Source of the DNA: a virus
Virus record (IMG/VR): IMGVR_UViG_3300030061_003198
DNA: 64,000 nt
Strand: one strand, 5' to 3'
The notes under the pieces were generated by a model. It worked only from the letters and a program-made list of their open reading frames with translations. It did no database searches and had not been told where the DNA came from. Numbering within the stretch: position 1 is the stretch's first letter; every line of letters starts with the position of its first letter. This document shows positions 1 to 35,630 of this stretch, piece by piece. Position numbers and translations under genes: made by a program.

Positions 1-740
1 AATTTTTCATTATATAAATCTTGTCCTAATGATGCATATATATTAGGAAATTCTTCTATATCATTCATTATAATCATCCCGCGCGTATCAAAATAATCTC
101 CAATTGACGGCATACCCCAATAGATTGGAATTGTTCCGGTCATAATAGGATTAATTAATTTTTCGGAAAAATGTAGATCTCGCCGTTGATTTTCCATTGC
201 AATATGAAATGCATAATCTTTTAATCCAGTAGTTATACTATCAATTGGATTATATCCTCTACCCATAACATCAATAACATTGCCCCATCGTTGTATTAGT
301 TCATGCCTTTTTAAATGATCAGGAACATTGCTTTTTCCTGATGCGATAATACTTACTATTTTAGTTTTATTATGAAACATTCTATTTTCTGGTTCTATCC
401 AGCATCCGCCAAAAGGATAATAAATGAAATTTTCGCCTTTATCTAGTAATTTTTTTTCATTAGTTAATACATAATCAAATAAATGATTGTTATTTAATAC
501 CCATTCATAACAATCGGGTTGTTTAACATATGGTTCTATTAACCATGCTATTTTTTTGCGGTGGCCCGATTTATCGCCTTTCATAATATCGCTGTCGGTA
601 TAAAATACTAAATCTTCATTATGAGATACGTTTCTATCCCATTCTATATTATCTGAAAAAGATACAGGTGGCATAGGATTATTACTATATTCACAATGAC
701 AAAACGTTTGTTCTATTATTTTTAATTTTAATTTACTCAT
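1..740 (-). CDS. Glycosyltransferase family 10 (alpha-1,3-fucosyltransferase-like), runs off the window edge
   Basis: Not in the ORF track. Hand translation from ATG at 740 (ATGA overlap with the GT11 stop) gives MSKLKLKIIEQTFCHCEY...; it contains the GT10-type motif YAFHIAMEN...SEKLINPIMTGTIPIYWG. Confidence 0.8.
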   Translation of the reverse strand, partial: MSKLKLKIIEQTFCHCEYSNNPMPPVSFSDNIEWDRNVSHNEDLVFYTDSDIMKGDKSGHRKKIAWLIEPYVKQPDCYEWVLNNNHLFDYVLTNEKKLLDKGENFIYYPFGGCWIEPENRMFHNKTKIVSIIASGKSNVPDHLKRHELIQRWGNVIDVMGRGYNPIDSITTGLKDYAFHIAMENQRRDLHFSEKLINPIMTGTIPIYWGMPSIGDYFDTRGMIIMNDIEEFPNIYASLGQDLYNEK

Positions 741-1480
741 ATTACTAACCAATCTTTACAATATAAATCAGTTGGATCTAATTTTTTATTAGGACCAAAC
801 CAATTTTTAGGAGCAATTACTGTTTTATTATTATTTTTATTTAACCATGCCCCCCACCAGCTAAATGATGAATTTGCAATTATATTATGATTGCATAATG
901 ACATTAACCACAAATCTATATAATCTTCTTCTCCTTCGATAAATATAAATTTATCGCCTACAAAATTATTTTTACACCATACTATATCATCACTAAATAT
1001 AAGAAAATTATCACAATTATTGAAATATGTCATAGCTGAATTATAATAATTTATATCCTGTACAGGATGTTTATCTTGTTTATTTAAATAATCACCCCGT
1101 CGTACATGAATAGAAACAGAATTTGATAACATATTAGCATATTTAGTTTGTATATATGTATTTGAAGCTTTATCAATTGAATATAAATCTAATATTTTTA
1201 TCCTATCTAGATATTTTTCACTTTGAAAATATCCGTTGAATAGTATGTTATTATATGTAGGTAGTGGTTGATATGTAAAAGATGGTTCATCATACTCATA
1301 TTGCAATCCTTCAACATTTTGATTTATTTTTCTAAATATATTTCTAAGATACTTTTTAATATTGCCATGCACTTGTGTAGCATCTTGGATATTAAAACCT
1401 ACATCTTCAGACAATGAGTACATTGCAGCTACTTGAAATAAGTAGTTACCTAAACCTCCTTGTAGTTTACAGCTAATCAT
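737..1480 (-). CDS. Glycosyltransferase family 11 (alpha-1,2-fucosyltransferase-like)
   Basis: GGLGNYLFQ, HVRRGDY and NSSFSWWGA motifs. Confidence 0.9.
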   Translation of the reverse strand: MISCKLQGGLGNYLFQVAAMYSLSEDVGFNIQDATQVHGNIKKYLRNIFRKINQNVEGLQYEYDEPSFTYQPLPTYNNILFNGYFQSEKYLDRIKILDLYSIDKASNTYIQTKYANMLSNSVSIHVRRGDYLNKQDKHPVQDINYYNSAMTYFNNCDNFLIFSDDIVWCKNNFVGDKFIFIEGEEDYIDLWLMSLCNHNIIANSSFSWWGAWLNKNNNKTVIAPKNWFGPNKKLDPTDLYCKDWLVI

Positions 1481-2162
1481 TACTATCCTCTAATATTGAA
1501 TTCCAAGATTGTGATAAATTATAATTTACAACTTTCTGCTCTATATCACTATAATCATCTGCTTGATCTGTTAGGCAAGGATAACAACCAAATATATTAT
1601 AATTAGGATTATGATGTATTTCAGAAAGATAATAAAAATCAATATTTACACGGCTAGGACCTGACCATATGGTATTATCATAAAAGTTAACGTTATCATA
1701 TTTGTTTAGTATAGTATCATACATACTTTCATAAACAATGTATGAATGAGTTGTTTTTGCTCCGCCTATTCTAAATAAATTTTTATCGATCTTTTTATTA
1801 GTTTCAACATATCCAGTTAATAAATTGCCGCCTAAATAAAGCATATGAGGACTTAGATTATTTGTTTCAATTTGTTGTAATGATGCTAATAAAGTAGATT
1901 TAAATGTAGAAGGATTAGTAATAGTAAAATCATCTTCAAATATTAATATATTTTTATAATTATTTTCTTTAGCATGCTTTACTATATTATAATGTGATAA
2001 TGTACAACCTCGTATACCGATATTATCTTTAATAGCTGGAACTCGGTAATAATTAGTAATATTTACACTATTAAGCGCTTCTTCACATTTAGTACGCCTG
2101 TCTTGTCTTTCGTCTAGATTTATATAGACAATACAATCAATATATTCAGATAGCCAACTCAT
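1473..2162 (-). CDS. Glycosyltransferase family 25
   Basis: YINLDERQDRR, GCTLSH and ILIFEDD motifs. Confidence 0.85.
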   Translation of the reverse strand: MSWLSEYIDCIVYINLDERQDRRTKCEEALNSVNITNYYRVPAIKDNIGIRGCTLSHYNIVKHAKENNYKNILIFEDDFTITNPSTFKSTLLASLQQIETNNLSPHMLYLGGNLLTGYVETNKKIDKNLFRIGGAKTTHSYIVYESMYDTILNKYDNVNFYDNTIWSGPSRVNIDFYYLSEIHHNPNYNIFGCYPCLTDQADDYSDIEQKVVNYNLSQSWNSILEDSND

Positions 2163-2791
2163 TAAATCGTTTCGTAATATTCGTTTTGACGTTCTTGTTT
2201 ATCTATTGTCTTTGGATGATGTAATGCTAATTCTTCATTAGGTGGCACTTGAGATAAAGCTTTATGCCCTTCTATTCTTTCATGTACTTTTCCTACCCAA
2301 TTTATATTTTTGTCTCGTTTATATATTCTACCTTGATAATCAGGCCAATTGACCCATCCTTCGTTATTAACTTGCCATTCCCATTTTTCTATATGAGTTT
2401 GAGTTAAGCCTTCAACTGTATTTATTCTTGGTATGTATATTAATTCGACACTAGGATTCATTTCTAATATAGGATGTAAATTATTAACTAGAATCTCAGA
2501 AGGTATCTCGTCTGCATCCAATTGAAATATCCAATCACAATCACGGAATAATTCATAGCCAGTATTTTTAAATGTAGCAAAATCATTATTTAATGGGGCA
2601 TATGCTAATCGAATTGAATCATCGGGAAGTAAAAATTTCTCACATAATTCCCGAACTTCATCAGTATGATTTGTCTCATCTAATAATATTCCTATACAAT
2701 CAGTATCAGAAATATTTGTTTTTAGCATTAGTAATAATCTTGCCAATTCTTCAAATTCATTACAAGCTGTTATAAAATATCCTATTTTCAT
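2162..2791 (-). CDS. Glycosyltransferase family 2 (GT-A)
   Basis: WIFQLDADE DxD motif, PD(Y)QGR and VHE motifs typical of LPS beta-glucosyltransferase-like GT2. Confidence 0.85.
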   Translation of the reverse strand: MKIGYFITACNEFEELARLLLMLKTNISDTDCIGILLDETNHTDEVRELCEKFLLPDDSIRLAYAPLNNDFATFKNTGYELFRDCDWIFQLDADEIPSEILVNNLHPILEMNPSVELIYIPRINTVEGLTQTHIEKWEWQVNNEGWVNWPDYQGRIYKRDKNINWVGKVHERIEGHKALSQVPPNEELALHHPKTIDKQERQNEYYETI

Positions 2792-4101
2792 ACTTTGTTC
2801 AACTTTGGTAATTTAATATTTGTATTTCCGGAATTAGGTAAACTAGATTTTGTTGTTTTATTTATTTTAGGCAACGATAATTTAGGTAACTGTAATTGCG
2901 TTGTATCAGGTATATGTTTAGTTCCAATATCAATAGTTTCAATTAACTTACTATATTTTTCTTTCATTGAATTTCTAGTGAATTTTTCATTAACAAATTT
3001 TTTCTGAGCTCTAGAACCTGGTAAAAATTTATTATATTGTTTATGAACTTCTTTTAATGCTTTTTTTGCATATCCATAATCCGGAGTAAACCATTTAGCT
3101 TCATTAATTAAAAATGGATTCTGTGCTGATTGGTGTATTGGTGTTAATCCTCCAATTAATGCAATAATATTTTCTTTTTGTAAAAAATCAGCTTGTCCCG
3201 AATAATGTGGAGCTATAATAGGCTTACCTGTTGTTGCAAACTCTAATAATGGACGACCAAACCCTTCAGCTTTAGTAAATGATATCATTGATTTAACCTT
3301 TGTATGATTATAAAGTAAATTCATTTCATCATCAGTTAAGTCTCCATGTAATAGATAAACATTAGGTAATTTTGTTTGTTTAGGGTATAGTGCACGAATT
3401 TGATTAATCTTATGTTCAATTGCATGCTTGTCAGTTACTGAATATGTTGCTCCTCCAGTTTTTAATATTAATCCTGGAACATTTGTTTTATTTTTAAATG
3501 TTTCAAAAAATACGTTAATTAGGCCACTAATATTTTTTCTATCTTCGCCCAATTGGCCTTCTAGCCAATGGCCAACAAATAAATAACAAAACTGTTCATG
3601 AATATCATTTAATATTGTTAATGATTTGTCTTTAATTGGTTTATATATAGATTGATCAAAATATTCTGATATGACTTGTATATCAGTAGATATCAACATA
3701 TTATGTTTTTTAGCAGTATTTATAAAAGTTTGTTTAGTAAACTCAGATGGTACAACAATAACATCCATTCTATTAATACATTCAATCCATTCTTTTGGAC
3801 CTACATCGCCTTCGGTACCAGCTGTTACCCCAATATTATATCTACCAACTTTTTGAAATTCATTTGGTACTGTTATCTGAACCCATATATCTGGTTGTTC
3901 TGATAATGGAAGTGGAACAAATTTACTTTGCCATTCTGTTGGTACTGGATATGTAAATGGGGTGTTGCCCCATGGCATTGAAAGTAATTTAATATCCCAT
4001 TCTGTTTCTTTTTGTTCTATTATATGACTAATAAATTCTCGCGCGTGATGTCCGTACCCCGATTGTGTAGCTACTGGACTTGAAATAACACATTTTTTCA
4101 T
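2788..4101 (-). CDS. GT-B glycosyltransferase (GT4-like)
   Basis: SGYG N-terminal loop, VPSEF and EGFGRPLLE C-terminal motif. Confidence 0.85.
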   Translation of the reverse strand: MKKCVISSPVATQSGYGHHAREFISHIIEQKETEWDIKLLSMPWGNTPFTYPVPTEWQSKFVPLPLSEQPDIWVQITVPNEFQKVGRYNIGVTAGTEGDVGPKEWIECINRMDVIVVPSEFTKQTFINTAKKHNMLISTDIQVISEYFDQSIYKPIKDKSLTILNDIHEQFCYLFVGHWLEGQLGEDRKNISGLINVFFETFKNKTNVPGLILKTGGATYSVTDKHAIEHKINQIRALYPKQTKLPNVYLLHGDLTDDEMNLLYNHTKVKSMISFTKAEGFGRPLLEFATTGKPIIAPHYSGQADFLQKENIIALIGGLTPIHQSAQNPFLINEAKWFTPDYGYAKKALKEVHKQYNKFLPGSRAQKKFVNEKFTRNSMKEKYSKLIETIDIGTKHIPDTTQLQLPKLSLPKINKTTKSSLPNSGNTNIKLPKLNKV

Positions 4102-5555
4102 ACTATACCCATTTCTTTATATGTTGTTGATTCTACTTTATTTAATGTATATTTTGGTCTTTTATCTTTAGGATAATCGAATAAAAAGTCGATCATTTCG
4201 ATCATTTTATTACCCATTTGTTTTGATGTTAATCCATGAGATAAACAAAACTCCCTGCCAGCTTCGCCACATTCTTCTCTCTCTTCTGCTGGTGTAAAAT
4301 ACCATGCTGCAATTGCATCTGATACTTCTTCATATTGACATCTGTCGTCAAAAATATATGGAGTTTTAGGTGAACCTTGCATAGATCGATTAGATGGAAA
4401 TACTGGTTGTACCCATTTGCCATGCTTTTTAAAATTACCTTTATGATTGGTAGAAAATTCTCCGTTAAATCTTAACCAATTACCATCAGCATCTTCAAAT
4501 CTACATTGATCTTGTAATCCACCTGTAACATTATTAATAATTGGAGTACCTGATAACAATGATTCTGTACTACTCAATCCCCATCCTTCGTTAGACGCAA
4601 TATTAATAGTTACGTCTGCAACATTATACATTGCATTTAATTCTACTGAAGATATTCTGGCTTCTGAAAATAATATTTTACAATCTGGTGCAATATTTTC
4701 ATGTATTGTTCTAAGGTCTGTGCCATTATTATCTACAATTTGAGTATGCATTAGCAACCCTACTGTATCTTGTTTATCTTTTGGTAAATTATCTCTAAAT
4801 TTCTTGAATGCTAATATTACATCTCCAGGCTGTTTTCGCCTGATATTACGATTATTCCAAAATACTAAAAATTCAATTCCATTTTTAAGTTTTATATCAT
4901 CATGAAACTTTTTATATGTTGTATCTGTTTCGGATATAGGTTTATATATATTATGGTTCAACCCATGCGGAACATATCCAGTAATTACTTCATCCCATTC
5001 CAAATTTGGATCTGGCTTTTTAGTGTTGTCTTCTGTATCAAAGTCATACACCCCAAATCCGTTCTGTTCCAACACCTCTCGATGTATATTATCAGATTGT
5101 TTCGAAATTCCCATTATTAAGTCACAGCTACCGTAAAATGGGGCATTCCACATTGGATATGGTAGATCGTCCCAAATTGAATAATATATCAATGGAATAT
5201 TAAATGATGTTTTAATTTCATGTTCTAATGCGTATAACCATTCCCAATATCTCGGATCGGTAAAGTGGAATATAGCGTCTGGTTTTTCTGATTGAATTAT
5301 TGCAAATAATAAATTTCTATTTCCATATCCATCAGATGGTATAACTTTTACGTCTGCATCTTGAACGCCTGTTTCCCGACGAACATCTGCAGATAAATCA
5401 AACATTTTTCCAGTATCTGGATGTTTAACTGCTGCTCCTATTTGTACCCAATCATATTTGTGTACTGTATTTAAAATAATTTCTTTTGAAATGGTTCCAA
5501 TTCCAGAAGGTAATCTAAAATCGTCTGCTAATAACAGAATTTTCTTTTTTTTCAT
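4098..5555 (-). CDS. GT-B glycosyltransferase (GT4-like)
   Basis: PSGIG, VPHG, NRNIRRKQ and EGWGLSSTE (E-x7-E) motifs. Confidence 0.88.
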   Translation of the reverse strand: MKKKKILLLADDFRLPSGIGTISKEIILNTVHKYDWVQIGAAVKHPDTGKMFDLSADVRRETGVQDADVKVIPSDGYGNRNLLFAIIQSEKPDAIFHFTDPRYWEWLYALEHEIKTSFNIPLIYYSIWDDLPYPMWNAPFYGSCDLIMGISKQSDNIHREVLEQNGFGVYDFDTEDNTKKPDPNLEWDEVITGYVPHGLNHNIYKPISETDTTYKKFHDDIKLKNGIEFLVFWNNRNIRRKQPGDVILAFKKFRDNLPKDKQDTVGLLMHTQIVDNNGTDLRTIHENIAPDCKILFSEARISSVELNAMYNVADVTINIASNEGWGLSSTESLLSGTPIINNVTGGLQDQCRFEDADGNWLRFNGEFSTNHKGNFKKHGKWVQPVFPSNRSMQGSPKTPYIFDDRCQYEEVSDAIAAWYFTPAEEREECGEAGREFCLSHGLTSKQMGNKMIEMIDFLFDYPKDKRPKYTLNKVESTTYKEMGIV

Positions 5556-5565
5556 TAATAACCTT

Positions 5566-5596
5566 TATAAATATATAATAACTTTATTATAAATAT
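5566..5596 (-). promoter_or_regulatory. Tandem putative late promoters (ATATTTATA x2)
   Basis: TATAAATAT on + strand at 5566-5574 and 5588-5596; the same motif precedes structural genes. Confidence 0.6.
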
Positions 5597-5997
5597 CAAC
5601 CTAAAATAACAACAGGCTTTTTTAATTTTTTTATTTTATTATATGCTGTTTTTAATTGCGGATTCAAATTATTTTCATTATTCATAATTATCATATAATC
5701 ACAATTTTCTGCCAATAATTTCATTCTATGTAATAATTGCGAAAAGTGATATTTCTTTCCATAATATGACTCTGGTAACATTGAATATAAATTTCTTCCT
5801 GTATATGATGGATTATATTCTTGATATGATATTCCAAATTCTAATGCAAATTTTTTAACCATATGATTAGCTCCTTCAGAGCCTCCACCAGATACAATAA
5901 TTAATTCTTGTTTAAATTTTTGTTTTAATTCTGAAAGTACTTGTTGTACTTTTCTTTTATTTTGCCATTCTTTATTTCCAATAACAGCAATTTTCAT
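5596..5997 (-). CDS. SLOG/YspA-like (DUF2493) protein
   Basis: KIAVIG and IVSGG..GA signature of the SLOG fold. Confidence 0.7.
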   Translation of the reverse strand: MKIAVIGNKEWQNKRKVQQVLSELKQKFKQELIIVSGGGSEGANHMVKKFALEFGISYQEYNPSYTGRNLYSMLPESYYGKKYHFSQLLHRMKLLAENCDYMIIMNNENNLNPQLKTAYNKIKKLKKPVVILG

Positions 5998-6246
5998 TTA
6001 TCCTTTGATAACTGTTTTTGTGGTTGGAGTTTTAGCATCTGTGGTATGTGCTAACATCATTTTTAGTGCGTCTAATTTACCTTGTGCATCTGCAAACTTT
6101 TCTATAAACTTATCTATTTCTGCAACTAAATCTGGGTGTTCGCCTATTCCAACTGCATTGTTTAAATAAACATCTAACTTTGCTACTGCTACTGCTTTTT
6201 GTGCATGGTATTTTGCATATAAAGCGTCTAATAATAATCCATTCAT
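5998..6246 (-). CDS. Small conserved T4-like phage hypothetical protein
   Basis: VGIGEHPD motif recalled from marine T4-like phages; RBS and promoter upstream. Confidence 0.6.
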   Translation of the reverse strand: MNGLLLDALYAKYHAQKAVAVAKLDVYLNNAVGIGEHPDLVAEIDKFIEKFADAQGKLDALKMMLAHTTDAKTPTTKTVIKG

Positions 6247-6262
6247 ATTTTCCTTTTTATTT

Positions 6263-6291
6263 ATTATATTAAAAATTATTGACGAATCCTA
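6263..6291 (-). promoter_or_regulatory. Early/middle promoter TAGGAT-N17-TATAAT
   Basis: Matches the recurring two-box consensus with exact 17-nt spacing. Confidence 0.55.
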
Positions 6292-7229
6292 TCTTCTTTG
6301 GGACAATTATCATAATCCATCTTAAATGGACACCACTTACAATGTTTAGATCCTTTACCAGCAATAGATAGATAATTTTGTTCTACTCGCTTCTTGCCAG
6401 TTTCATCAAAACAAAATTCTATAAATGAGTCAATATCACGTTGAATCTTTTTTCTAGTAATTGATCCAGAAGCCGGATTAAGTATCTGTATACGCTTTTG
6501 TGGAAACATTGATTCTTCTAGTAACTTTCGTTTCACTATAAAGAATTCAATATCAATATTGTCAATTGGAGTTCCAAATTGGTCGGAAAAGTATTTTTTA
6601 TAAGCAACCAATTGTGCTGCTTTAAGCTTATCAGCTTTTTGCCATTTGTTCCAGCCCATTCGGCTAGTTTTAATATCTATTATTTTTATTGTATTTAATA
6701 CAGTATCTCTAACTACAATATCTATAAATCCGTACCAATAAACATTTTTATTAACTGATGATGCTGGTACTCCTAATTCTACTTCTATCCCAACTAGTTC
6801 CATATTTTTAGTAGAAAAATATTGAGATCTTCTTTTTTTGAACCAATCTAATATTTGTACTCCATCATTTAAATGTTCTGCTAATTCAGTTGGGGTTGAA
6901 AAATGTTCTCCATTATTTGCTTTTACTCCTTTGCTATATTCTAACTTCAAATATGTTAATAGCAAATCGTGAAGATTTATTTCATTTGCTGCCTTGACTG
7001 AATCAGTATATAATACAGTTAAATATTCTTGCAATGTTTCATGGAAGGCAGTTCCAAAACATGTTGCAATACTATGAGTAAATGGAGCTAACTTATCAAT
7101 ATATGAAAGCTTCCATTGTTTAGGACATTTTGAAAACATTGACCATTGTGAATATGATATCTTAGCCGGAACTTTTGATACATCATTTAATGATAATTTA
7201 TATATTGGGTTTATATATCCGGTTTTCAT
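6276..7229 (-). CDS. Cas4/RecB-like PD-(D/E)XK exonuclease with Fe-S cysteines
   Basis: SYSQ..CP, GFID, IIDIKT, QL..Y and C-terminal CKWCPF..C. Confidence 0.85.
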   Translation of the reverse strand: MKTGYINPIYKLSLNDVSKVPAKISYSQWSMFSKCPKQWKLSYIDKLAPFTHSIATCFGTAFHETLQEYLTVLYTDSVKAANEINLHDLLLTYLKLEYSKGVKANNGEHFSTPTELAEHLNDGVQILDWFKKRRSQYFSTKNMELVGIEVELGVPASSVNKNVYWYGFIDIVVRDTVLNTIKIIDIKTSRMGWNKWQKADKLKAAQLVAYKKYFSDQFGTPIDNIDIEFFIVKRKLLEESMFPQKRIQILNPASGSITRKKIQRDIDSFIEFCFDETGKKRVEQNYLSIAGKGSKHCKWCPFKMDYDNCPKEDRIRQ

Positions 7230-7231
7230 AA

Positions 7232-7816
7232 TTATGGGTAGATTAAAAGGCCTTGTTTACACTCATTTATAAGATCATCTTTTATTTCAGAAATTTTATC
7301 ATAAAAATTTTCAACTGCTTCATCATAAGCATATTGATCTTTATTTTCTATAAAATCGTCTTCATCTGGATATTCTGGAAGATCTTCATCATCACAAATA
7401 AAATCAGATCCATTATGATTTGCATAACCTCCTGATACATGTAAATATGCTTCATCTTCACTTCTAGCTTCCATTTCGAATTCACCACGCTTTGTAAACC
7501 AATCTGCTAGTTCATGAAATAATTCTTCTGGTGGATACCATGCTGAATCAAATGTTAAATCAATTATATCGTCATCTATATGCCAATCGTGTACAAAACA
7601 CCATTTTGCTCCTACATTTTCAATCATCCAATCTCTAGTTAAATTGTCTTTAGGATAATCTTTATATAATAATCCATATAAGTTATCAGCTATTATACTA
7701 CTTTTAAGTTGCCAATCAGCTTCTTCTACTTCTGGAGTAAATAATTTGTCTGCGAAATTTTTTAGAACTTCTACAGATGATTCTATACTTACAACAGTAT
7801 ATACGTTATTTGCCAT
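7232..7816 (-). CDS. YubB/DUF1281-like ferredoxin-fold protein, acidic
   Basis: W..ENVGAKW and FDSAWYPP motifs. Confidence 0.6.
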   Translation of the reverse strand: MANNVYTVVSIESSVEVLKNFADKLFTPEVEEADWQLKSSIIADNLYGLLYKDYPKDNLTRDWMIENVGAKWCFVHDWHIDDDIIDLTFDSAWYPPEELFHELADWFTKRGEFEMEARSEDEAYLHVSGGYANHNGSDFICDDEDLPEYPDEDDFIENKDQYAYDEAVENFYDKISEIKDDLINECKQGLLIYP

Positions 7817-7830
7817 AATATTTTTATTAT

Positions 7831-7859
7831 ATTATAAGAAATTATTCGGATTGATCCAA
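7831..7859 (-). promoter_or_regulatory. Early/middle promoter TTGGAT-N17-TATAAT
   Basis: ATCCAA at 7854-7859 and ATTATA at 7831-7836 on + strand. Confidence 0.65.
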
Positions 7860-8069
7860 ATGTTCAGTAAGATAAATATCAATTAAATCCTTTGACTTTT
7901 TTAGATCTTCTTCGAATGATCCTTTTTTTCTGCACCTAACTATACGTTTAAGTATGTCAAACTCATATGAGTTTAAGTCCCATTCTTCTGCAAATTTGTA
8001 TAGACTCGATTTACCAACATAATGATATTGAGTATTAATTGATCCTGTATTTGTTGATTCAAATGTCAT
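7842..8069 (-). CDS. DUF3310-like protein
   Basis: HY...K...R.RKKG...EDLKK pattern. Confidence 0.65.
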   Translation of the reverse strand: MTFESTNTGSINTQYHYVGKSSLYKFAEEWDLNSYEFDILKRIVRCRKKGSFEEDLKKSKDLIDIYLTEHLDQSE

Positions 8070-14924: not shown

Positions 14925-14935
14925 ATTTTTTCTAT

Positions 14936-14964
14936 ATTATAATTAATTTTATTGAATTATCCAA
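14936..14964 (-). promoter_or_regulatory. Early/middle promoter TTGGAT-N17-TATAAT
   Basis: The -35 box is formed by the last codons of polB (TTT GGA TAA). Confidence 0.65.
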
Positions 14965-17476
14965 ATGAAAAGAATTTATTCATATTATTATTTTCAGGAA
15001 GTTTATCCCAATTCATAGATGCATAAAAATCATCTAATTTGCCACGAATCTCTCTATCAAATATCTTATTCCTATCAATATATTTTTCTACAAATTCTGT
15101 TAATTCTCTTGGATCATCATAACCACGAAGGGCAATAGAATCAAACCCCATAGCGTTTGTTTTAAGATATGCCCATTTAATTTTATCTCCATTCTGAATT
15201 TCAGGAATTACTTTACTTCTTCTATTAATACCTAAATGTTTTAACATATCATTGTAATTAATTGCAGATTTAACATGAATCGGAGTTCCAGACAGATATC
15301 CAGATAATGGCTTTCTACCTTTTGTATACTTTGTGACATTTTTAACACCTGTATTCTTCATAACATCTAATATTGGAGAATCTTGTATTTTGTCTTTAAA
15401 ATCCATTATTAAATTAGTTGTGTCATTTTTTGACTTTTCTTTGAGTACATACCATAATGTTTCTTTCATTATAGTTTTAAACTCTGTAGGGAAAGATGAT
15501 CTTACTACGTCTAGACCTTTAATATCCATTTTATCTGTGGGTTTTCCTTCTTTAAAGATTACCCATTGAGCATATCTCTTTTTTGCTATCCATAGACCAG
15601 ATTTAGCAACATATTCTTGTTTAATTTGCCATCGATGATCAAATGTATTATGAAAGTGAACTGCATATTGATCATACATTTTGTTAACATGAGCTTGTAT
15701 CTCAGACGCAATGTCATTTGTTTTTTCAATCATAAACTTTTCATCTGATTCATCAAATCCGGGATATCTTTTTTCTATAAGAGGTAAACTAGATACAAAT
15801 GTTGAATCTGTATCCGTATAAAATGAAAATTCGGCTTTGTTGCCATTAGCGTTAATAAAATAATCTTTGCCAACTTCCTTTTCATAATATTTATTAATAA
15901 CTTTTGCTGAAAATTTAATAACACTTTGGCCAGTTGCTGTAATAGCTCCTGCATTGTCTAAGTCATGAAATCTAAATGTCTTTAATCCTAATACTCCATA
16001 AAATGAATTTAACAATACTTTTTGTGTTAATTGCATTGCATCATAAAATTTATACTTATCACTACCAACTTCATGATTATCTCGCTCATTCTTAAATTTA
16101 ACACGTTCGTCAAACCATTTCTCTAATATCTTTGGTAAGAATCCTTTACTTCTTGTATCATATACTACTCCGTTACTTGCAACAGTAAATTTATTATCAA
16201 TTAACCATTGTTTAATATCTGGTATAGTTTGGCCATTACATTGTACACTAACAGCTTCTTTACTTAATAATGATTCTTGTTTCCAATTTGGAATAACGCC
16301 TATTTTTGTTTCTGGAGATATATTAAGACTCATAATAATTGAAGGATACAGAGAAGTTAAATCTAAATCATATATCCATTTATATAATCCTGGAATTGGA
16401 GGCATAACATATGCGCCTGCTAATTTATTCTGCTCTTCGTCTTCAACAAATCTAAATTGTTTATTTGGAGCTACCAGCCCGTTTCTTTTTAAATCTACAA
16501 TAGCGGCGCCGTCTAGATATTTAGATGCATAATAAACGTCTTCATATGGAACATGGCCTTTGTGACATATTGTTCTTGCTAAGTTAATTAATTGTAATTT
16601 TTCATCTAACTCATATACAAGATCAACATCCGTCATATTATATTCTATAAACTTGTTAATATCTGAAACAAATAAATCGTCTAAGTCGCCATCATATTCA
16701 ATTTTACCTTTGCCTAATTCTGTTTTACCTACAGTGTCTAATCTATAATTAGGAAGTTCTGAATATGTAAAGTTCTTATATAATTTAATATAATCTAAAC
16801 TCGATACGCCAAATATTTTATATTTTTCGCGATGCTTATTCCATTCTACAATCCCAGCTGGTGATAATTTATTTGCAGACTTAGGACCTAACACTTTTTT
16901 AATCCTATTAATAAGATAAGGAATATCATATCCATCAGTATTCCAACCAGTTATAACAGTAGGTTGTATTTCTGAAAAATAGTTAATAAATTTAATTAAT
17001 AAGTTAGCTTCATTGTCAAATACCTCAACAGTATAGTTATCACCATATATAATATCATCAGATAATCTATTTTCTTTGTCTAATACTAATACTCTTCTAT
17101 CTTTACCAACTTTGTCATAATATGCTATCGATGTTATTTCGGTTCTAACATCTTGCGGAGTAGAATAACCATCTGCGTCTTTTGCTGTTTCAATATCAAA
17201 GAAGAAATCAGCATGGCCAGTCGAGACTAAATCAGATTCATAATATAAGTCTATTAATGTTCTAACCTCTTCATTTAAGTCAGATTCATATGCATCTGAA
17301 TTATCTCTATGATTACCTGGAGTCTTTGCTAACTTAGTTCCATTTAATGATATATATTCTCCACTCGGATCTGGAATATACCCATATGGCTTAAACTTAA
17401 AAGTTTTATGACCTAATTCGTCATCCCATACGTGCATTGTGCTTGTTTTTTTATGATATGCTATATTCTGATACAT
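14957..17476 (-). CDS. Family B DNA polymerase (T4 gp43-like)
   Basis: Exo motifs DIET and GWN..YD; polymerase motifs DLTSLYPSII, KVLLNSFYG and YTDTDS. Confidence 0.97.
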   Translation of the reverse strand: MYQNIAYHKKTSTMHVWDDELGHKTFKFKPYGYIPDPSGEYISLNGTKLAKTPGNHRDNSDAYESDLNEEVRTLIDLYYESDLVSTGHADFFFDIETAKDADGYSTPQDVRTEITSIAYYDKVGKDRRVLVLDKENRLSDDIIYGDNYTVEVFDNEANLLIKFINYFSEIQPTVITGWNTDGYDIPYLINRIKKVLGPKSANKLSPAGIVEWNKHREKYKIFGVSSLDYIKLYKNFTYSELPNYRLDTVGKTELGKGKIEYDGDLDDLFVSDINKFIEYNMTDVDLVYELDEKLQLINLARTICHKGHVPYEDVYYASKYLDGAAIVDLKRNGLVAPNKQFRFVEDEEQNKLAGAYVMPPIPGLYKWIYDLDLTSLYPSIIMSLNISPETKIGVIPNWKQESLLSKEAVSVQCNGQTIPDIKQWLIDNKFTVASNGVVYDTRSKGFLPKILEKWFDERVKFKNERDNHEVGSDKYKFYDAMQLTQKVLLNSFYGVLGLKTFRFHDLDNAGAITATGQSVIKFSAKVINKYYEKEVGKDYFINANGNKAEFSFYTDTDSTFVSSLPLIEKRYPGFDESDEKFMIEKTNDIASEIQAHVNKMYDQYAVHFHNTFDHRWQIKQEYVAKSGLWIAKKRYAQWVIFKEGKPTDKMDIKGLDVVRSSFPTEFKTIMKETLWYVLKEKSKNDTTNLIMDFKDKIQDSPILDVMKNTGVKNVTKYTKGRKPLSGYLSGTPIHVKSAINYNDMLKHLGINRRSKVIPEIQNGDKIKWAYLKTNAMGFDSIALRGYDDPRELTEFVEKYIDRNKIFDREIRGKLDDFYASMNWDKLPENNNMNKFFSFG

Positions 17477-18741: not shown

Positions 18742-18751
18742 ATTTTATTAT

Positions 18752-18780
18752 ATAATAAGAAATAATTTTAAATTATCCAA
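18752..18780 (-). promoter_or_regulatory. Early/middle promoter TTGGAT-N17-TATTAT
   Basis: Consensus match upstream of uvsE. Confidence 0.6.
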
Positions 18781-18782
18781 GT

Positions 18783-20309: not shown

Positions 20310-20441
20310 TTATTTTGTGTTTTCTAATATATTTCGTAATTTATCTATCATTTCCTGAACTTCATCAGGATCCATTGTTATTGCACAACAAATATTAACA
20401 TTTTCTTCTATCTCATTTAATAGTTCTAATGCTTCATCCAT
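20310..20441 (-). CDS. 43-aa acidic hypothetical protein
   Basis: Not in the track: MDEALELLNEIEENVNICCAITMDPDEVQEMIDKLRNILENTK; TAATG overlap with queE. Confidence 0.55.
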   Translation of the reverse strand: MDEALELLNEIEENVNICCAITMDPDEVQEMIDKLRNILENTK

Positions 20442-21226
20442 TATACTCCTCTTTCAGTGTCATATGCTATAATATGATCTCTTCCTGTCATATTATAGCC
20501 ATGTTCTGCTACCATTTCAAATACTATAGGATACATCTCCATTAATGTTTTTCTAGTATCTCCAGCCGGCATTACATAAGTTTTATGTTTAGGAATATCC
20601 ATTTCAATTCTAAATTCTTCTATTTCTTTTAGATTCTTTTCAGTGCCATCCCATACAGGTTTAAAATGATAATCTTTATGATAATCTAATGTCTTACGCA
20701 TTGCATCTTTATTCATTCTTAATCTATTATGAACTTTAATCATTCGTTCATCTGTAACTGATCCATTAGGAGTTATTGCACCTAAGACAGGAACTGAATT
20801 AGAAAATTTAGGAGATAAAGATATTAAGTCAATTGGATAATCAGTTTCGAGAAAATGACTTCCTTCTGTTTCAATAGTAACTAATATTCCCCTTTCGTTT
20901 GCAAAGTGCATAATTTCATTTACTAATGCTGGATGCATTGTTGGTGATCCACCAGTTAACATCATTTCTTTTACATGAGGATTTTCATCATATATTTTAA
21001 TAATATCATTAAATGTAAATGTACCTTTTTCTGGATGAATACTTGTATACCAACTATCACACCAACCACCTTCTCCAAAGTAGCATCTATGTGTACATCC
21101 TGTTGTTCTAACTGCTATTGTGGGTCTTCCAAATCTTGACCCTTCTGATTGAACACATCTATATATTTCTAATACAGGAATTGTTTTATTATAATCTTTA
21201 AGTCTTTTTAATTTTTTATTCACCAT
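20441..21226 (-). CDS. queE: 7-carboxy-7-deazaguanine synthase (radical SAM)
   Basis: QSEG...G, CTHRC....CDS, LTGGSP, IETEG and SLSPK; next to queD; exact start uncertain (21226 or 21238). Confidence 0.9.
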   Translation of the reverse strand: MVNKKLKRLKDYNKTIPVLEIYRCVQSEGSRFGRPTIAVRTTGCTHRCYFGEGGWCDSWYTSIHPEKGTFTFNDIIKIYDENPHVKEMMLTGGSPTMHPALVNEIMHFANERGILVTIETEGSHFLETDYPIDLISLSPKFSNSVPVLGAITPNGSVTDERMIKVHNRLRMNKDAMRKTLDYHKDYHFKPVWDGTEKNLKEIEEFRIEMDIPKHKTYVMPAGDTRKTLMEMYPIVFEMVAEHGYNMTGRDHIIAYDTERGV

Positions 21227-21680
21227 AATATGCTGCATTTTTACCGTGCTCCATGAACTTAACTTTTGTAACTCTTACTCTGTTATCTGTTTCTGTTTTA
21301 ACAAAGTCATTTAACTTGTTATAAATATATTCAGCAAACTTTTCGGCGCCTGTTGCTTCGATCCATCTCAATTGTATAATACCTCTTTCATTCATTTCTT
21401 CTAAAACATCAACTGCAGGATCGTCTTTTGCTGCTACTACAGTATGGTCAAACATATAATCCATCCAAGCTTTAGGTTGCATTCCATCTATAAGAGTTTT
21501 AGCTCTTTTCATTCCTCCAAAGTCCCAAACCCAATTTCTGTGGTCTAATTCACCTTCAAAATATACTTTAAATGATATTCCATACCCATGTAAAAATCTA
21601 CAATGTGTATTTTCTGCTTTCCATTGACGAAACACTGTACTAAATCCGTCAAAAACTTTACTTGATTGATGTTTTCCCAT
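21216..21680 (-). CDS. queD: 6-carboxytetrahydropterin synthase
   Basis: HCRFLHGY, WVWDFG, FDH and AE motifs. Confidence 0.9.
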   Translation of the reverse strand: MGKHQSSKVFDGFSTVFRQWKAENTHCRFLHGYGISFKVYFEGELDHRNWVWDFGGMKRAKTLIDGMQPKAWMDYMFDHTVVAAKDDPAVDVLEEMNERGIIQLRWIEATGAEKFAEYIYNKLNDFVKTETDNRVRVTKVKFMEHGKNAAYYGE

Positions 21681-23183: not shown

Positions 23184-24836
<1,653 letters not shown>

Positions 24837-24838
24837 TT

Positions 24839-24867
24839 ATTATAATAAATTTTTATTAAATATCCAA
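24839..24867 (-). promoter_or_regulatory. Early/middle promoter TTGGAT-N17-TATAAT
   Basis: Consensus match upstream of groEL. Confidence 0.65.
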
Positions 24868-24905
24868 ACCATAATATAATCTTGTTATCCAATCATCTGC
24901 TCTCA

Positions 24906-26765
24906 TTATTGTATCTCACAAGCTCCACCAGCACAAGCTAATTCTCCTGATAAATCGGTATTATCATCTAGTTCAATAATATTTGAAACATCTACTTCTT
25001 TTAACGTTTCCATTAATCTATTATATGTTTCTTCTGAACAATCTTCGAATGGTGCTTGAGTATAACTACCGCCATCATAATTTAATACTGATAACCCGTT
25101 ATAATGTTTTCTGTTATCCCACATCCATTCGCCAGCATCTTTCCATTCTGTATCTTTCAAGCTGACAGTTGCAGACACGTTGTGAGTGTTACTACCATTA
25201 CGATGACCTGGGGCTACCCATTCCATGGCTACTTTTTTAATTCTTTCTAATAATTGAAAAGGAGACTCTGTTCTCATTATAGCTCCATCTGGTGCTTTTT
25301 GTGGTACACTAATTACTGCAGTGTCATGGGGTCTAAAATACTCATCTTCTACTAATTCAGGGTGGTTTTCAACTAAATACTTATATATTGATTCATTTTT
25401 ACCAACTCTAACTCTTCTAATATAAAAATCATTATGCCATGCATGAATACCAGACGATGTTCCCAATGCTAAAGATGTAGTTCCAGCTGGTTTAACGGTT
25501 GTACAACGTGCTGCTCGGTTAATACCAATTAATTTAGCTACTCTTGTATTTTCTCGCTTAACAACATCGGCTCCTTTTTTCATATCATAGCCTAATACTG
25601 TTCCTGATCCTATACCGGTCATTGATACTCCAATTAACGCATCTTTTTCTGTAGTTTCTCTCCATACATCTCTTAAATAATGAAAGTCGGTATATCCTGC
25701 TTGTAATGTTCCTATAAATGCAGCTCCTTTTACTCTAGCATTAAAATCTTCTTGTGATTCTAAGTCAGATGCATTTACTTCACATAAGTTGCAAAATTGA
25801 TATGGTCTTAATGCTATTTCGCAACAAGGATTAGTACCCCAATCTTTATCATTATTAAAATATATACCTGGTTCTCCAGCTCCTGATAATTCAACTCGTT
25901 TCCATAGATCCATAAAAAATGATTTAGTAATTTTATGTCTCATTAATACTGCAGAGTTATTTGATCTACCTCTTTGGGGATCTGTTTCCCACCAGTTACC
26001 AGCTTTACATCCAATCATTTGATCATCATCTGCACTAAATAAACTAATTAATGCTGCTCTCCTAATTCCTCCGGCTAAAACTGCGTCTGCAATATGACAA
26101 ACTATATCATGTACTTCTAACGTTGATAGCTTATCGCCGTCTTCTCTAGCATCTAATATACCTGTTACTTTTAGAATGCATTCTTTTAATGGTTGTGGGC
26201 CTGGAGCTTTCCCTCCTGATGTTACTAATTGAGCTCCTTTGGGTCTAACGTCAGAATAATCAAATTCTATTCGTGAGCTTTTACCATTTAAATATGATTT
26301 CATTAACACTTTGATAGCGTCTGCCCAACCTTCAATTGAATCGCCTATTAAAAATCTACGTTTTCTTTTAGCGTAAGGTTTGTTAACAGGTGGTAATTTA
26401 GCTACATGATGTTTTTGTACTGAATAACCTACTCCGGTACCGCCTAATAATAAGAACATTATCTCACTAAATGAGTCAATATGATCTAATGGTAAATAAG
26501 CACAATTATACACCCGATTAGGTGATATTTCAATTGGTTTGCCGCCAAATTGTAATGATCTCATTGATGGCAATATTTTTTTATTATAAACCATTTTATA
26601 AACATCTTCAATTTCATCTTTTAAGTTTGGGTACCTTTTAATATGCATATTTTTGTTTCGTGTAACGAGCTCGTCCCATGTTTCTCTCCTATTAAATTCT
26701 GGGATGTATTTGGCATATTTCATATGCACTGTTATATCTGATAAAATTTTGTTTGAAATGTTCAT
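24906..26765 (-). CDS. nrdJ: Class II (adenosylcobalamin) ribonucleotide reductase, monomeric type
   Basis: PSMR, NCA, GTNPCCEI, TVKPAGT and C-terminal CAGGAC; start moved to MNISNK after an AAGGAG RBS. Confidence 0.9.
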   Translation of the reverse strand: MNISNKILSDITVHMKYAKYIPEFNRRETWDELVTRNKNMHIKRYPNLKDEIEDVYKMVYNKKILPSMRSLQFGGKPIEISPNRVYNCAYLPLDHIDSFSEIMFLLLGGTGVGYSVQKHHVAKLPPVNKPYAKRKRRFLIGDSIEGWADAIKVLMKSYLNGKSSRIEFDYSDVRPKGAQLVTSGGKAPGPQPLKECILKVTGILDAREDGDKLSTLEVHDIVCHIADAVLAGGIRRAALISLFSADDDQMIGCKAGNWWETDPQRGRSNNSAVLMRHKITKSFFMDLWKRVELSGAGEPGIYFNNDKDWGTNPCCEIALRPYQFCNLCEVNASDLESQEDFNARVKGAAFIGTLQAGYTDFHYLRDVWRETTEKDALIGVSMTGIGSGTVLGYDMKKGADVVKRENTRVAKLIGINRAARCTTVKPAGTTSLALGTSSGIHAWHNDFYIRRVRVGKNESIYKYLVENHPELVEDEYFRPHDTAVISVPQKAPDGAIMRTESPFQLLERIKKVAMEWVAPGHRNGSNTHNVSATVSLKDTEWKDAGEWMWDNRKHYNGLSVLNYDGGSYTQAPFEDCSEETYNRLMETLKEVDVSNIIELDDNTDLSGELACAGGACEIQ

Positions 26766-26793
26766 ATATATGACTCCTTTTTTTATTTTAGAC

Positions 26794-26823
26794 AAAAATA
26801 GGCCTCCATTTGAAAGGCCTATT
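26794..26823 (-). terminator. Stem-loop followed by T-run
   Basis: AATAGGCCT...AGGCCTATT inverted repeat, then TTTT on the minus strand. Confidence 0.6.
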
Positions 26824-26833
26824 ATTAATTTAT

Positions 26834-26842
26834 TATAAATAT
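26834..26842 (-). promoter_or_regulatory. Putative late promoter ATATTTATA
   Basis: Exact motif copy in an intergenic gap. Confidence 0.45.
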
Positions 26843-26847
26843 GATTA

Positions 26848-28203
26848 CTACCCTAAACTTCCGCCTAGATCTTTAAACTTTTGTGCTAAATTTTTCTTAA
26901 CTAATGTTTCGCCTGTCTTCATTGTTTGAGTTGTTTGTCTACCTTGAGTAGTCTGCGGTTCAAAGAAATTAAACTGACCGTTATTTGTATTTATTTTACT
27001 TGGTAATGTAATACCATCTGGACCAAATCTGTTTTTAATAACATGACCTCTACCTGTTCCTGATAACTTATCTTCTACTTTTCTAGACAATGACATTAAA
27101 AAGTCAGCTACCATTACTTTACCATATGAAGAAGCAATTTTATCAGCTTCTATAATATCATCTTCCAATGCAGACCTACCTGCTTGAGATGCTGTCCAAA
27201 CTGGAATATTATATTCGCCTGCCATGCCTCTCATTTCTTCATATAATTCTTCTAATGCTTCATGCTTATCTTTTTTAGTATTAACCTTTAAAAGATCGCC
27301 ATAATCTACTACAATTAAATCTGGAGTATTTCCTAGCATTATAGTTTTTTCAATATGAGCTTTAATACCCATTACACCTGTAGATTTTGTTGGATAATAT
27401 TTTATAATCAACTCACCTGGAAGTGTTTCTAATTTTTCTTCTATATCGTCTGTGTGATGTTTTAAGTTTTGAGCTGCAATACCAGTTACTACACTATCAT
27501 ATCGTTGACCTACATAATTATCGTTTAATTCTAACGTATAATGTATAACTGTTTTTCCTTGCTTTACAGCATTAGCTCCAATATTAATAAGCATCCATGA
27601 TTTACCAATTCCTGCAGGAGCCATTACTACGCCTAATTCGCCGGGAGCTAATCCGCCATCCATTAAATCGTCAATTACATCCCATCCAGTGCTTATAGTA
27701 TGCCTAGCTGATTCGGTATATCTTGCTACAACATCTTTTTTATATTCATGGCCAATATCTGTGTCAGCTCCAGCTTTCATTGCAGAATCCATTTTGCTTT
27801 TTATTTCATCATAACTACCTAATTTTAGTAGTCCAACTGAATCCATAATAGCTCGCTTAATTTCTTGATTCTTACAAAATTTTAGTATTTCATTTTTTAC
27901 AAAGTCTAAATCATCTGACTCCATATATCGAAATACATCTTTTAATTGTTCTAAAATTGCTGCTTTAAGAATATCATTGTCTATTTCAGTAACTTTAACT
28001 TTTAAAACGTCTTTTGAAGGGGGCGTTTTATATTCTCGAAAATGTTCTATTAATATATCTAATAACCAACTATTAGCATCAGATTCAAAATAATCTGATT
28101 GAATAATATCAGCAATCTGTTGAAGAAATGTTCTATCCACAAACATAGCTGCCAAAACTTTAACCTGAAAAGACCATCCATACTCACTTAACTTATCTGT
28201 CAT
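26848..28203 (-). CDS. Replicative DnaB-like helicase (T4 gp41-like)
   Basis: APAGIGKS Walker A, TLE, VDYGD, TASQ and KNRFG. Confidence 0.93.
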   Translation of the reverse strand: MTDKLSEYGWSFQVKVLAAMFVDRTFLQQIADIIQSDYFESDANSWLLDILIEHFREYKTPPSKDVLKVKVTEIDNDILKAAILEQLKDVFRYMESDDLDFVKNEILKFCKNQEIKRAIMDSVGLLKLGSYDEIKSKMDSAMKAGADTDIGHEYKKDVVARYTESARHTISTGWDVIDDLMDGGLAPGELGVVMAPAGIGKSWMLINIGANAVKQGKTVIHYTLELNDNYVGQRYDSVVTGIAAQNLKHHTDDIEEKLETLPGELIIKYYPTKSTGVMGIKAHIEKTIMLGNTPDLIVVDYGDLLKVNTKKDKHEALEELYEEMRGMAGEYNIPVWTASQAGRSALEDDIIEADKIASSYGKVMVADFLMSLSRKVEDKLSGTGRGHVIKNRFGPDGITLPSKINTNNGQFNFFEPQTTQGRQTTQTMKTGETLVKKNLAQKFKDLGGSLG

Positions 28204-35591: not shown

Positions 35592-35599
35592 ACATTAAT

Positions 35600-35628
35600 A
35601 TAATAATAAATTATTTATAAAAATCCAA
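35600..35628 (-). promoter_or_regulatory. Early/middle promoter TTGGAT-N17-TATTAT
   Basis: Consensus match upstream of the polA-like gene. Confidence 0.55.
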
Positions 35629-35630
35629 AT

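Follow-up and report, generated by a model that had tools for sequence, protein, structure and literature searches.

A glycosyltransferase operon with a predicted GDP-colitose pathway in a putative Far-T4 phage, and candidate acceptors for its glycan

Operon, transferases and nucleotide-sugar genes

The IMG/VR virus record IMGVR_UViG_3300030061_003198, from an uncultured marine T4-like phage, carries a glycosyltransferase (GT) operon that combines a set of conserved phage transferases with a predicted route to GDP-L-colitose. The window is the stretch of 64,000 nucleotides analyzed here, which corresponds to the minus strand of C1:14298-78297 in a record of 112,279 bp with a completeness of 66% (CheckV). 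The record has a G+C content of about 31%, and 139 of its 149 open reading frames (ORFs) share one strand. Proteins identical or 91% identical to those of this phage occur on contigs of 157-169 kb. Similarity of its capsid protein to those of phages RM378 and immuto suggests a placement among the Far-T4 phages. The operon comprises 14 genes over 12.1 kb (C1:72743-84854); the analyzed locus, window 1-5596 with genes on the minus strand, contains the promoter and the first six of them, while off-window genes are given in C1 coordinates (Table 1). Gene calls were checked by searches of Pfam, PHROGs, NCBIfam/TIGR, and PDB, supplemented with an AlphaFold2 model of the first gene product, GT4a.

The first-pass annotation, made from the window sequence, had recognized six families (GT4, GT4, GT2, GT25, GT11, GT10) in overlapping genes that ran past the window edge. 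All six assignments hold, by Pfam or, for GT4b, by phrog_2170, and eight more genes follow off-window. The genes are translationally coupled: junctions range from -23 to +3 nt, with no gap larger than 3 nt among all 14 genes, and the stops and starts of the six in-window minus-strand ORFs overlap by 1-16 nt. A scan for sigma-70 promoters and terminators detected no plus-strand terminator inside the operon and fewer promoter-like sites than in shuffled sequences.

At least nine transferases are encoded in the operon, or nine to ten if a protein of about 252 aa is counted. Among them, GT4a matches phrog_2170 (glycosyltransferase, 2.8e-19) in addition to its Pfam family and has an EX7E motif in the form NEGWGLSSTE. 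Its model (predicted local distance difference test, pLDDT, 84.7) has a GT-B fold of two Rossmann domains, and the top structure matches belong to GT4. On this basis, GT4a is predicted to be a retaining GT-B glycosyltransferase of family GT4. Its closest solved match, by both sequence profile (1.4e-13) and fold, is B736L of chlorovirus NY-2A (PDB 3OY2). An assignment to the GT4-conflict family of Pfam, and with it a role in defence or counter-defence, was rejected given a score of 15 bits against a cut-off of 26 and no match from PADLOC. GT4b scores under the Pfam cut-off for PF00534 (22.5 bits, E 9e-5) and keeps the EX7E motif as AEGFGRPLLE; a sequence search of the PDB returned no match for it.

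The remaining in-window transferases retain family signatures to different extents. The Pfam alignment of GT25 covers just profile positions 69-136 of 199. GT11 contains family motif I (HxRRGDY) as HVRRGDY. GT10 aligns with the alpha-1,3-fucosyltransferase of Helicobacter pylori (PDB 2NZW, 4.7e-8) in the C-terminal domain only, where its nucleotide-sugar motif MENQ...SEK-TIPIYWG (F-x-I-x-M-E-N, S-E-K) lies opposite FENT...TEK-TIPIYWG of 2NZW; the family pattern is FxxxFENS...TEK. The protein of about 252 aa has no match in Pfam, PHROG, NCBIfam, or PDB. In the Atlas, it matches only an unnamed phage/Bacteroidota cluster, plus a weak GT2 lead at 0.92, and it may be GT-A-like.

Table 1. Positions of the operon genes, the promoter motif copies, and other features of the phage. 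Plain numbers are window positions; C1 coordinates denote off-window genes.
Feature	Coordinates	Strand	Size	Family match or remark
Distal ATATTTATA copy (core TATTTATA)	5588-5596	-		begins immediately behind the stop codon of the SLOG-like gene upstream
Proximal ATATTTATA copy	5566-5574	-		11 nt before the GT4a start codon
GT4a	4098-5555	-	485 aa	PF00534 (Glycos_transf_1) 26.7 bits, cut-off 26.4, E 4.6e-6; first operon gene; lineage core gene
GT4b	2788-4101	-	437 aa	phrog_2170 2.2e-18; start overlaps GT4a stop by 4 nt; core gene
GT2a	2162-2791	-	209 aa	GT-A; PF00535 25.7 bits, cut-off 23.3, E 1.3e-5; third core gene
GT25	1473-2162	-	229 aa	PF01755 39.1 bits, cut-off 24, E 9.6e-10; opens the variable part of the island
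GT11, putative alpha-1,2-fucosyl/colitosyl-transferase	737-1480	-	247 aa	PF01531 99.3 bits, cut-off 23.9, E 3.1e-28; phrog_2644 7e-54
GT10, putative alpha-1,3/4-fucosyl/colitosyl-transferase	1-740/752, runs off window edge; whole gene C1:77558-78394	-	~246 codons in window	PF00852 29.3 bits, cut-off 23.9, E 8.7e-7
Fcl/ColC-like reductase	C1:78394-79281		295 aa	short-chain dehydrogenase/reductase; next after GT10
ColD	C1:79265-80419		384 aa	DegT fold; between fcl and gmd
Gmd	C1:80412-81392			TIGR01472 405.1 bits, cut-off 415, full-length; GDP_Man_Dehyd 5.9e-117
Protein of no assigned family	C1:81379-82137		~252 aa	
Methyltransferase-like protein	C1:82139-82687			
GT2b	C1:82691-83416			operon gene 12
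GT2c	C1:83413-84102			operon gene 13
GT2d	C1:84099-84854			last operon gene
SLOG-family gene (YAcAr/YspA-like)	5596-5997	-	133 aa	PF10686 3.7e-8
QueE-like gene	20441-21238	-		phrog_2076 1e-49
QueD-like gene	21216-21680	-		phrog_2389 2.7e-39
Fibre genes	59434-62265; 50503-53109	-		SGSFxGxGSGLTN-like and SASYAITASYA-like repeats
Ribonucleotide reductase (RNR) gene	24906-26795			
Probable lysis cassette	C1:84894-88021			directly after the operon

A search of the adjoining sequence for nucleotide-sugar genes, which had been proposed as a check, located both gmd and an fcl-like gene, with a third enzyme gene between them. The best PDB matches of the Fcl-like reductase are GDP-L-fucose synthases (human 4B8W, 3.9e-53); its STC and YxxxK residues, including the catalytic Ser, Cys, Tyr, Lys, and His, align with those of the human and E. 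coli enzymes. It scores 168 bits against NF047922 (cut-off 500) and may be either an Fcl or a ColC. The intervening protein most closely matches ColD/WbdK of E. coli O55 (2GMS, 3GR9; 7.5e-60), with weaker matches to CDP-hexulose E1 (2e-28) and perosamine synthase (1.6e-24). Its GHH aligns with SHH of the reference, the first His of which is altered in the mutant entries 3B8X and 2R0T (H188N/H188K). The His188 equivalent occupies the position of the Schiff-base Lys of aminotransferases. By these alignments, the protein is a ColD-type GDP-4-keto-6-deoxymannose 3-dehydratase of the pyridoxamine phosphate-dependent class and no aminotransferase. Perosamine synthase was dropped as an assignment given the far stronger ColD match and the replacement of Lys by His.

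The operon is thus predicted to encode a route from host GDP-mannose to GDP-L-colitose (3-deoxy-fucose) through Gmd, ColD, and the Fcl/ColC-like reductase. The initial proposal of a fucosylated glycan stands with respect to the fucosyltransferase families GT11 and GT10 but needs revision with respect to the sugar. As ColD lies between fcl and gmd, the predicted donor is GDP-L-colitose and the product is better termed colitosylated and/or fucosylated; GDP-fucose is possibly a co-product, if the reductase takes intermediate untouched by ColD. WbgN, the characterised alpha-1,2-transferase of E. coli O55, is a GT11 member. GDP-colitose can serve as donor for enzymes of fucosyltransferase families: it is the natural donor of WbgN, which also tolerates GDP-fucose (PMC12723683).

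The trio of Gmd, ColD, and an Fcl-like reductase is shared with the gmd-colD(wbdK)-colC(wbdJ)-wbgN loci of E. coli O55/O111 and with the V. cholerae O139 locus, and a GT11 gene adjoins the pathway as the gene for the colitosyltransferase WbgN does. Unlike those bacterial loci, the operon is phage-borne, has a phage promoter of putative late type and a phage-specific GT4-GT4-GT2 core, and contains no ManB/ManC, Wzx, Wzy, or initiating transferase. A literature search found no paper on a phage-encoded colitose pathway, and this appears to be the first one described. The module recurs in two relatives (L024, L036), where ColD (67% identity) and Gmd (70%) have the same FSMYFGHH motif and lie beside GT11, GT10, and GT25. 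ColD homologues with 75-92% identity also occur on phage-sized marine contigs. Judged from these matches, the module is common among marine members of the clade, yet patchy relative to GT4a similarity.

Conserved core and variable island

GT4a matches at least 8000 protein clusters at 90% identity and occurs in marine metagenomes of many studies, and 275 relatives were confirmed in IMG/VR. We compared the neighbourhood of the gene in 80 IMG/VR loci. The order nuclease-SLOG-GT4a-GT4b-GT2a is present in all of them wherever the contig extends far enough, with identities of 67-88% for GT4a, 57-68% for GT4b, and 40-75% for GT2a. Genes downstream of GT2a are almost never shared; for example, GT25 is found in few relatives and at 25-34% identity. 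At 50% identity, the 348 ORFs that follow the core in 43 loci form 197 clusters. Tallied by Pfam family, 150 representatives of these island proteins include 19 NDP-sugar epimerases/dehydratases, 13 Polysacc_synt_2, 11 GT2, five DegT, three RmlC, three PIG-L deacetylases, two NeuB, and several kinds of methyltransferase including FkbM.

Island length also varies. A shared gene for a 705-aa protein lies 15.3 kb downstream of GT4a here and, in three near-complete relatives, about 10, 14.5, and 21 kb from it; the endolysin-like gene directly behind the operon had no match in relatives when considered as the downstream anchor. The variable part of the operon has a G+C content of 28.5%, against 31.2% for the genome. 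These comparisons point to an architecture of a lineage-wide three-enzyme core (GT4a-GT4b-GT2a), followed by a hypervariable sugar island. In layout, this resembles the core and O-antigen of lipopolysaccharide (LPS).

The core extends to phages of Flavobacterium, Microcystis, and Rhodothermus, the last of which (RM378) holds only a GT4a/GT4b-like pair. Identities of GT4a and of the major capsid protein, respectively, are 45% and 57% for immuto (Flavobacterium sp. LMO8), 50% and 53% for Mel-JY01 (Microcystis), 34% and 52.5% for the huge uncultured phage LR756508, and 28% and 39% for RM378. Core gene synteny is retained in immuto, Mel-JY01, and RM378, with GT2a syntenic in the first two. Two entries of RM378 size (484 and 425 aa) are among the structural matches, and their lengths suggest that they are Rm378p013 and p014. 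Glycosyltransferases go unmentioned in both the description of the Far-T4 group (PMC4360716) and the host-prediction paper (PMC7198788).

Two minor irregularities were observed in the core. At the GT4b/GT2a junction (window 2827/2862), a relative from a marine metagenome has 529 extra nt; this insertion matches a small extra ORF, immuto_91, between GT4b and GT2 of immuto. In Mel-JY01 (L085 9001-10492), the GT4a orthologue is annotated as two coding sequences of 191 and 303 aa, which may reflect a frameshift, a sequencing error, or a genuine split.

Promoter classes and expression

The two tandem motif copies originally reported ahead of the locus are present, both on the gene strand within the 40-nt spacer preceding GT4a. 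Only this phage and its closest relative, L005, have the tandem duplication. The core TATTTATA itself is kept ahead of GT4a in 44 of 53 distinct relatives and also in Flavobacterium phage immuto. By count, the motif does not exceed chance in the window (13 copies against 9.6 expected), with 12 of the 13 on the gene strand. Its placement is highly skewed: the whole record has 21 copies on the gene strand and three on the other, 17 of the 21 have a start codon 11-39 nt downstream, and 16 fall within the 3.4% of the genome that is intergenic (binomial p ~1e-19, an estimate that ignores the higher A+T of spacers). Likewise, ATATTTAT is the top enriched 8-mer upstream of genes, occurring in 20 of 63 upstream regions compared with about one expected.

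In agreement with the earlier observation that the motif sits mainly before structural genes, those behind it include the portal, head-tail adaptor-like, sheath, tube, baseplate hub, and fibre genes and several genes of no assigned function in the structural block. One copy also precedes the RNR gene, and two copies are located inside genes. A variant, TATTTATT, precedes the endolysin-like gene directly after the operon. No -35 element accompanies TATTTATA.

All 16 copies of a second promoter class, T[TA]GGA[TA]-N15-19-TTATTATA (i.e. T[TA]AT[AT]AT[AT]), lie on the gene strand, ahead of small ORFs and of genes for replication and nucleotide metabolism; minus-strand examples in the window are at 7816-7860, 14925-14965, 18742-18781, 24828-24868, and 35592-35629. 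As 13 of the 16 sites end 4-24 nt ahead of a start codon, leaders are predicted to be very short or absent. This class looks like an early/middle promoter and resembles the sigma-70 -35/-10 pair, unlike the Bacteroidota TTTG/TAnnTTTG type. Given that TATTTATA heads structural and lysis genes and that a separate -35/-10 class serves replication genes, we classify TATTTATA as a putative late-type promoter by gene association only. The sequence does not support membership in the T4 late-promoter family: the T4 late consensus is TATAAATA on the non-template strand, whereas the coding strand here carries its reverse complement, TATTTATA, in place of the consensus itself.

Evidence for transcription comes from assembled contigs. 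Near-identical contigs across the SLOG and phrog_1811 genes (window 5651-6292) were found in two RNA libraries, and one library has a 199-nt contig within GT4a; being assembled, these carry no information on timing, strand, or start. The common contig end at 5651 was rejected as a transcript boundary, as it coincides with a low-complexity stretch skipped by the search tool.

Two further elements were observed near copies of the motif. Most relatives (L005-L084) conserve GTTATAA(A/G)GGA between TATTTATA and the GT4a start (window 5540-5566). The element recurs before the baseplate-hub gene (window ~43500); possible roles are those of a leader, a ribosome-binding site, or an overlapping -10 element. 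Just ahead of the RNR gene (window 26796-26850, minus strand), a G+C hairpin aggcctttcaaatggaggcct and a T-run come after a TATTTATA copy, such that a late-type promoter and a terminator-like hairpin together precede a nucleotide-metabolism gene.

Candidate acceptors and neighbouring genes

The operon is best explained by a cytoplasmic pathway that glycosylates virion proteins, a reading in which our confidence is evenly balanced; the acceptor is a point that we infer. In this model, the conserved GT4a, GT4b, and GT2a would act late in infection in the cytoplasm, attaching an inner oligosaccharide directly to a phage-intrinsic acceptor, most likely the fibres, sheath, head decoration, or similar virion proteins exposed at the surface. 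Extension of the glycan would then fall to the variable enzymes. GT25 would probably add galactose, and GT11 and GT10 would cap the chain with colitose or fucose in alpha-1,2 and alpha-1,3/4 linkage to give an epitope like Lewis-b/Y or that of Vibrio cholerae O139, which further GT2 additions and methylation may follow. Since the same slot holds different sugar pathways in related phages, the outer glycan may act as a strain-variable "serotype" of the particle.

The predicted cell biology of the enzymes is consistent with this proposal. None of the 14 operon proteins has a 19-residue segment scoring at least 1.6 on the Kyte-Doolittle scale, and all 14 are predicted to be soluble. Among the 348 island proteins of relatives, 12 have any hydrophobic window and none is of Wzx or Wzy size, with only three small proteins having three to four transmembrane segments. 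No initiating phosphoglycosyl transferase, flippase, polymerase, ligase, or ABC exporter was found here or in the 43 related islands. The 25 commonest Pfam families of the 150 island representatives are nucleotide-sugar enzymes, GT2, and methyltransferases, and include no Wzx/Wzy/ABC or initiating-transferase families. By gene content, the locus does not resemble a Wzx/Wzy- or ABC-dependent O-antigen or capsule locus. In addition, GT4a co-occurs with a T4-like capsid protein in phages from hosts of three phyla, and conservation of the core across such different hosts argues for a phage-intrinsic acceptor.

Two viral systems provide precedents. The capsid and tail-tube subunits of mycobacteriophages carry glycans, as cited in PMC12619734. 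As far as these are outlined in PMC12619734 and PMC12801897, several soluble phage transferases, with methyltransferases in some cases, decorate particle proteins in the cytoplasm, and their glycan, like the one here, is proposed to be strain-variable. The present system differs from them in its Gram-negative host (the lineage is linked to Bacteroidota), its T4-like phage, its 14-gene operon with its own nucleotide-sugar pathway, the location of that operon outside the structural module, and capsid and tube proteins without Ser/Thr-rich C-terminal tails. Capsid glycosylation in chloroviruses (PBCV-1 Vp54) likewise employs virus-encoded GMD/GMER and multiple cytoplasmic transferases and methyltransferases, among them NY-2A B736L / PBCV-1 A546L. 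Chloroviruses are, unlike this phage, eukaryotic giant viruses with no known ColD or colitose, and the identity between GT4a and B736L is about 18%.

Several observations weigh against glycosylation of virion proteins. GT25, GT11, GT10, and colitose are classically associated with LPS and O-antigen synthesis, and since O-antigen transferases, too, are mostly soluble or peripheral, soluble operon proteins remain compatible with lipid-linked acceptors. The operon is located between the replication and lysis modules, outside the structural module. Neither the major capsid protein nor the tube protein has a Ser/Thr-rich C-terminal tail of the mycobacteriophage type. The fibres are Ser/Thr-rich, as the first-pass annotation stated (22.6%, 30.2%, and 35.8% Ser+Thr against 13.7% genome-wide), but this is not diagnostic of glycosylation because the residues are located in ordinary fibre repeats. 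The tripeptide [ST]GS is enriched over shuffles in the fibres, a 2008-aa protein, and the sheath; we rejected [S/T]-G-S as a glycosylation sequon, as the reverse SG[ST] is about equally enriched and the tripeptide lies in fibre repeats of the SGSFxGxGSGLTN type. With respect to timing, the T4 gp55 query for a gp55-type late sigma factor returned nothing from the 66%-complete record, and ten candidate ORFs matched no sigma-factor PHROG. The genes upstream of the operon (194-aa ORF, nuclease, phrog_1811, SLOG) have an early/middle-type promoter at C1:70439, from which earlier read-through into the operon is possible because no terminator separates the two. The acceptor of B736L, the nearest structure, is itself not established (PMC9614988), and the GT4a match is hence a resemblance only.

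Host-surface remodelling is the main rival, which we consider unlikely. The soluble transferases would act on undecaprenyl-linked intermediates of the host, for example undecaprenyl pyrophosphate-N-acetylglucosamine (Und-PP-GlcNAc), on lipid A-core, or on a precursor of Bacteroidota protein O-glycans; host flippase and ligase would export the product, and the altered LPS, capsule, or glycoproteins would block superinfection or the sticking of progeny to debris. The combination of GT25/GT11/GT10 with Gmd-ColD-ColC is typical of O-antigen and lipooligosaccharide loci, the lower G+C of the variable part is often seen in O-antigen loci, and a universal lipid-linked acceptor could account for conservation of the core across host phyla. 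Furthermore, this is how clusters with GT10, GT11, and GT25 in cyanomyoviruses have been interpreted (PMC12801897). The lack of an initiating transferase, Wzx, Wzy, ligase, or ABC exporter here and in 43 islands speaks against it, as does a promoter of the structural and lysis type where superinfection exclusion would lead one to expect an early one. Replacement of an envelope glycan late in a lytic cycle would presumably be slow, and the close conservation of GT4a and its co-inheritance with the capsid across phages of Bacteroidota, Cyanobacteria, and Rhodothermus also disfavor this explanation.

The cyanomyovirus cell-wall/LPS clusters themselves (P-SSM2, S-SCSM1, and S-SCSM2R with 13 transferases including GT10, GT11, and GT25) are similar in belonging to marine T4-like phages and in combining the same CAZy families with NDP-sugar epimerases; their function is putative (PMC12801897). 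They differ in lineage and in lacking the GT4a core, and the literature reads them as modifiers of the host surface or DNA. No core/variable-island structure or promoter link has been described for them.

DNA hypermodification, in which the oligosaccharide would be built on a modified genome base as by the T4 alpha/beta-glucosyltransferases and further DNA glycosyltransferases of viruses, is very improbable. Phage transferases are classically DNA-modifying and diverse DNA glycans are known (Pyle et al. 2024, as cited in PMC12619734), the operon comes after the replication module, and a DNA alpha-glucosyltransferase stands at rank 28 of the viral fold matches. The case against a DNA acceptor in the first-pass annotation relied on late expression, to which the late-type promoter conforms. 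It is strengthened by published data for immuto, which has an orthologous GT4a-GT4b-GT2 core and a sugar island: liquid chromatography with UV detection and mass spectrometry found only dA, dC, dT, and fdPreQ1 in its DNA (bioRxiv 10.1101/2023.04.13.536721). This phage already has a separate 7-deazaguanine system (QueD, QueE). A ThyA-family gene (synthase or hydroxymethylase) is present in three of four near-complete relatives but was found neither in this 66%-complete record nor in the complete, core-bearing relative G001; its presence in the three others means that gene content alone is not decisive. Nine to ten transferases with a deoxy-sugar pathway go far beyond known DNA glycans. The T4 alpha/beta-glucosyltransferases are likewise GT-B enzymes of a T4-like genome, but they are single enzymes from early/middle genes that use UDP-glucose and need hydroxymethylcytosine, in contrast to the late-type promoter, multiple transferases, and GDP-deoxyhexose here.

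Improbable to a lesser degree is some other cytoplasmic acceptor, be it a host or phage non-structural protein (effector-type) or a free oligosaccharide, glycolipid, or compatible solute. The enzymes are predicted to be soluble, the fold neighbours of GT4a include the small-molecule transferases MshA, BshA, TreT, sucrose-phosphate synthase, and GlgM, and a nucleotide-binding SLOG-family gene is the conserved upstream neighbour. That gene, however, is absent from immuto, Mel-JY01, and RM378, and no match to defence or counter-defence families was obtained. Hypervariable islands for rare sugars (NeuB, DegT, RmlC, FkbM) would rather signal exposed glycans under diversifying selection than an effector or metabolite inside the cell.

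Returning to the virion proteins, the broader proposal is that Far-T4 aquatic myoviruses coat their particles with a self-made oligosaccharide, with a lineage-wide inner core and a strain-swapped outer part that here would be colitose-capped and Lewis-like. We advance this tentatively, with a little less confidence than the choice of acceptor class. Chloroviruses, mimiviruses, and mycobacteriophages are established to have glycan coats of their own making; to our knowledge, no such coat is established for phages that infect Gram-negative bacteria or for T4-like phages from the sea. Few genes of this very abundant lineage are as conserved as GT4a, which is joined to a slot with differing rare-sugar pathways, spanning colitose, nonulosonic acids, and amino and methylated deoxy-sugars. 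If placed on the particle, the product would affect adsorption, host range, decay and grazing in seawater, and detection by lectins or antibodies. The proposal, if true, would provide a concrete function for a large block of "auxiliary" carbohydrate genes in viromes and reveal a general, previously unrecognised layer of surface variation in ocean phages. The cultured relative immuto makes it testable. The locus also offers, in compact form, soluble enzymes for GDP-colitose and putative colitosyltransferases.

Three groups of genes surrounding the operon or elsewhere in the window merit description. Each of the 80 metagenomic relatives has the SLOG-family gene upstream of GT4a, with identities of 58-80%. 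Given the QueE- and QueD-like genes, a 7-deazaguanine derivative probably takes the place of guanine in this phage, as fdPreQ1 does in its relative immuto. Directly after the operon, a probable lysis cassette contains the endolysin-like gene behind TATTTATT, whose 204-aa product matches phrog_3000/33083, followed by small transmembrane proteins, a 370-aa protein with a signal peptide, and a secreted thioredoxin-like protein.

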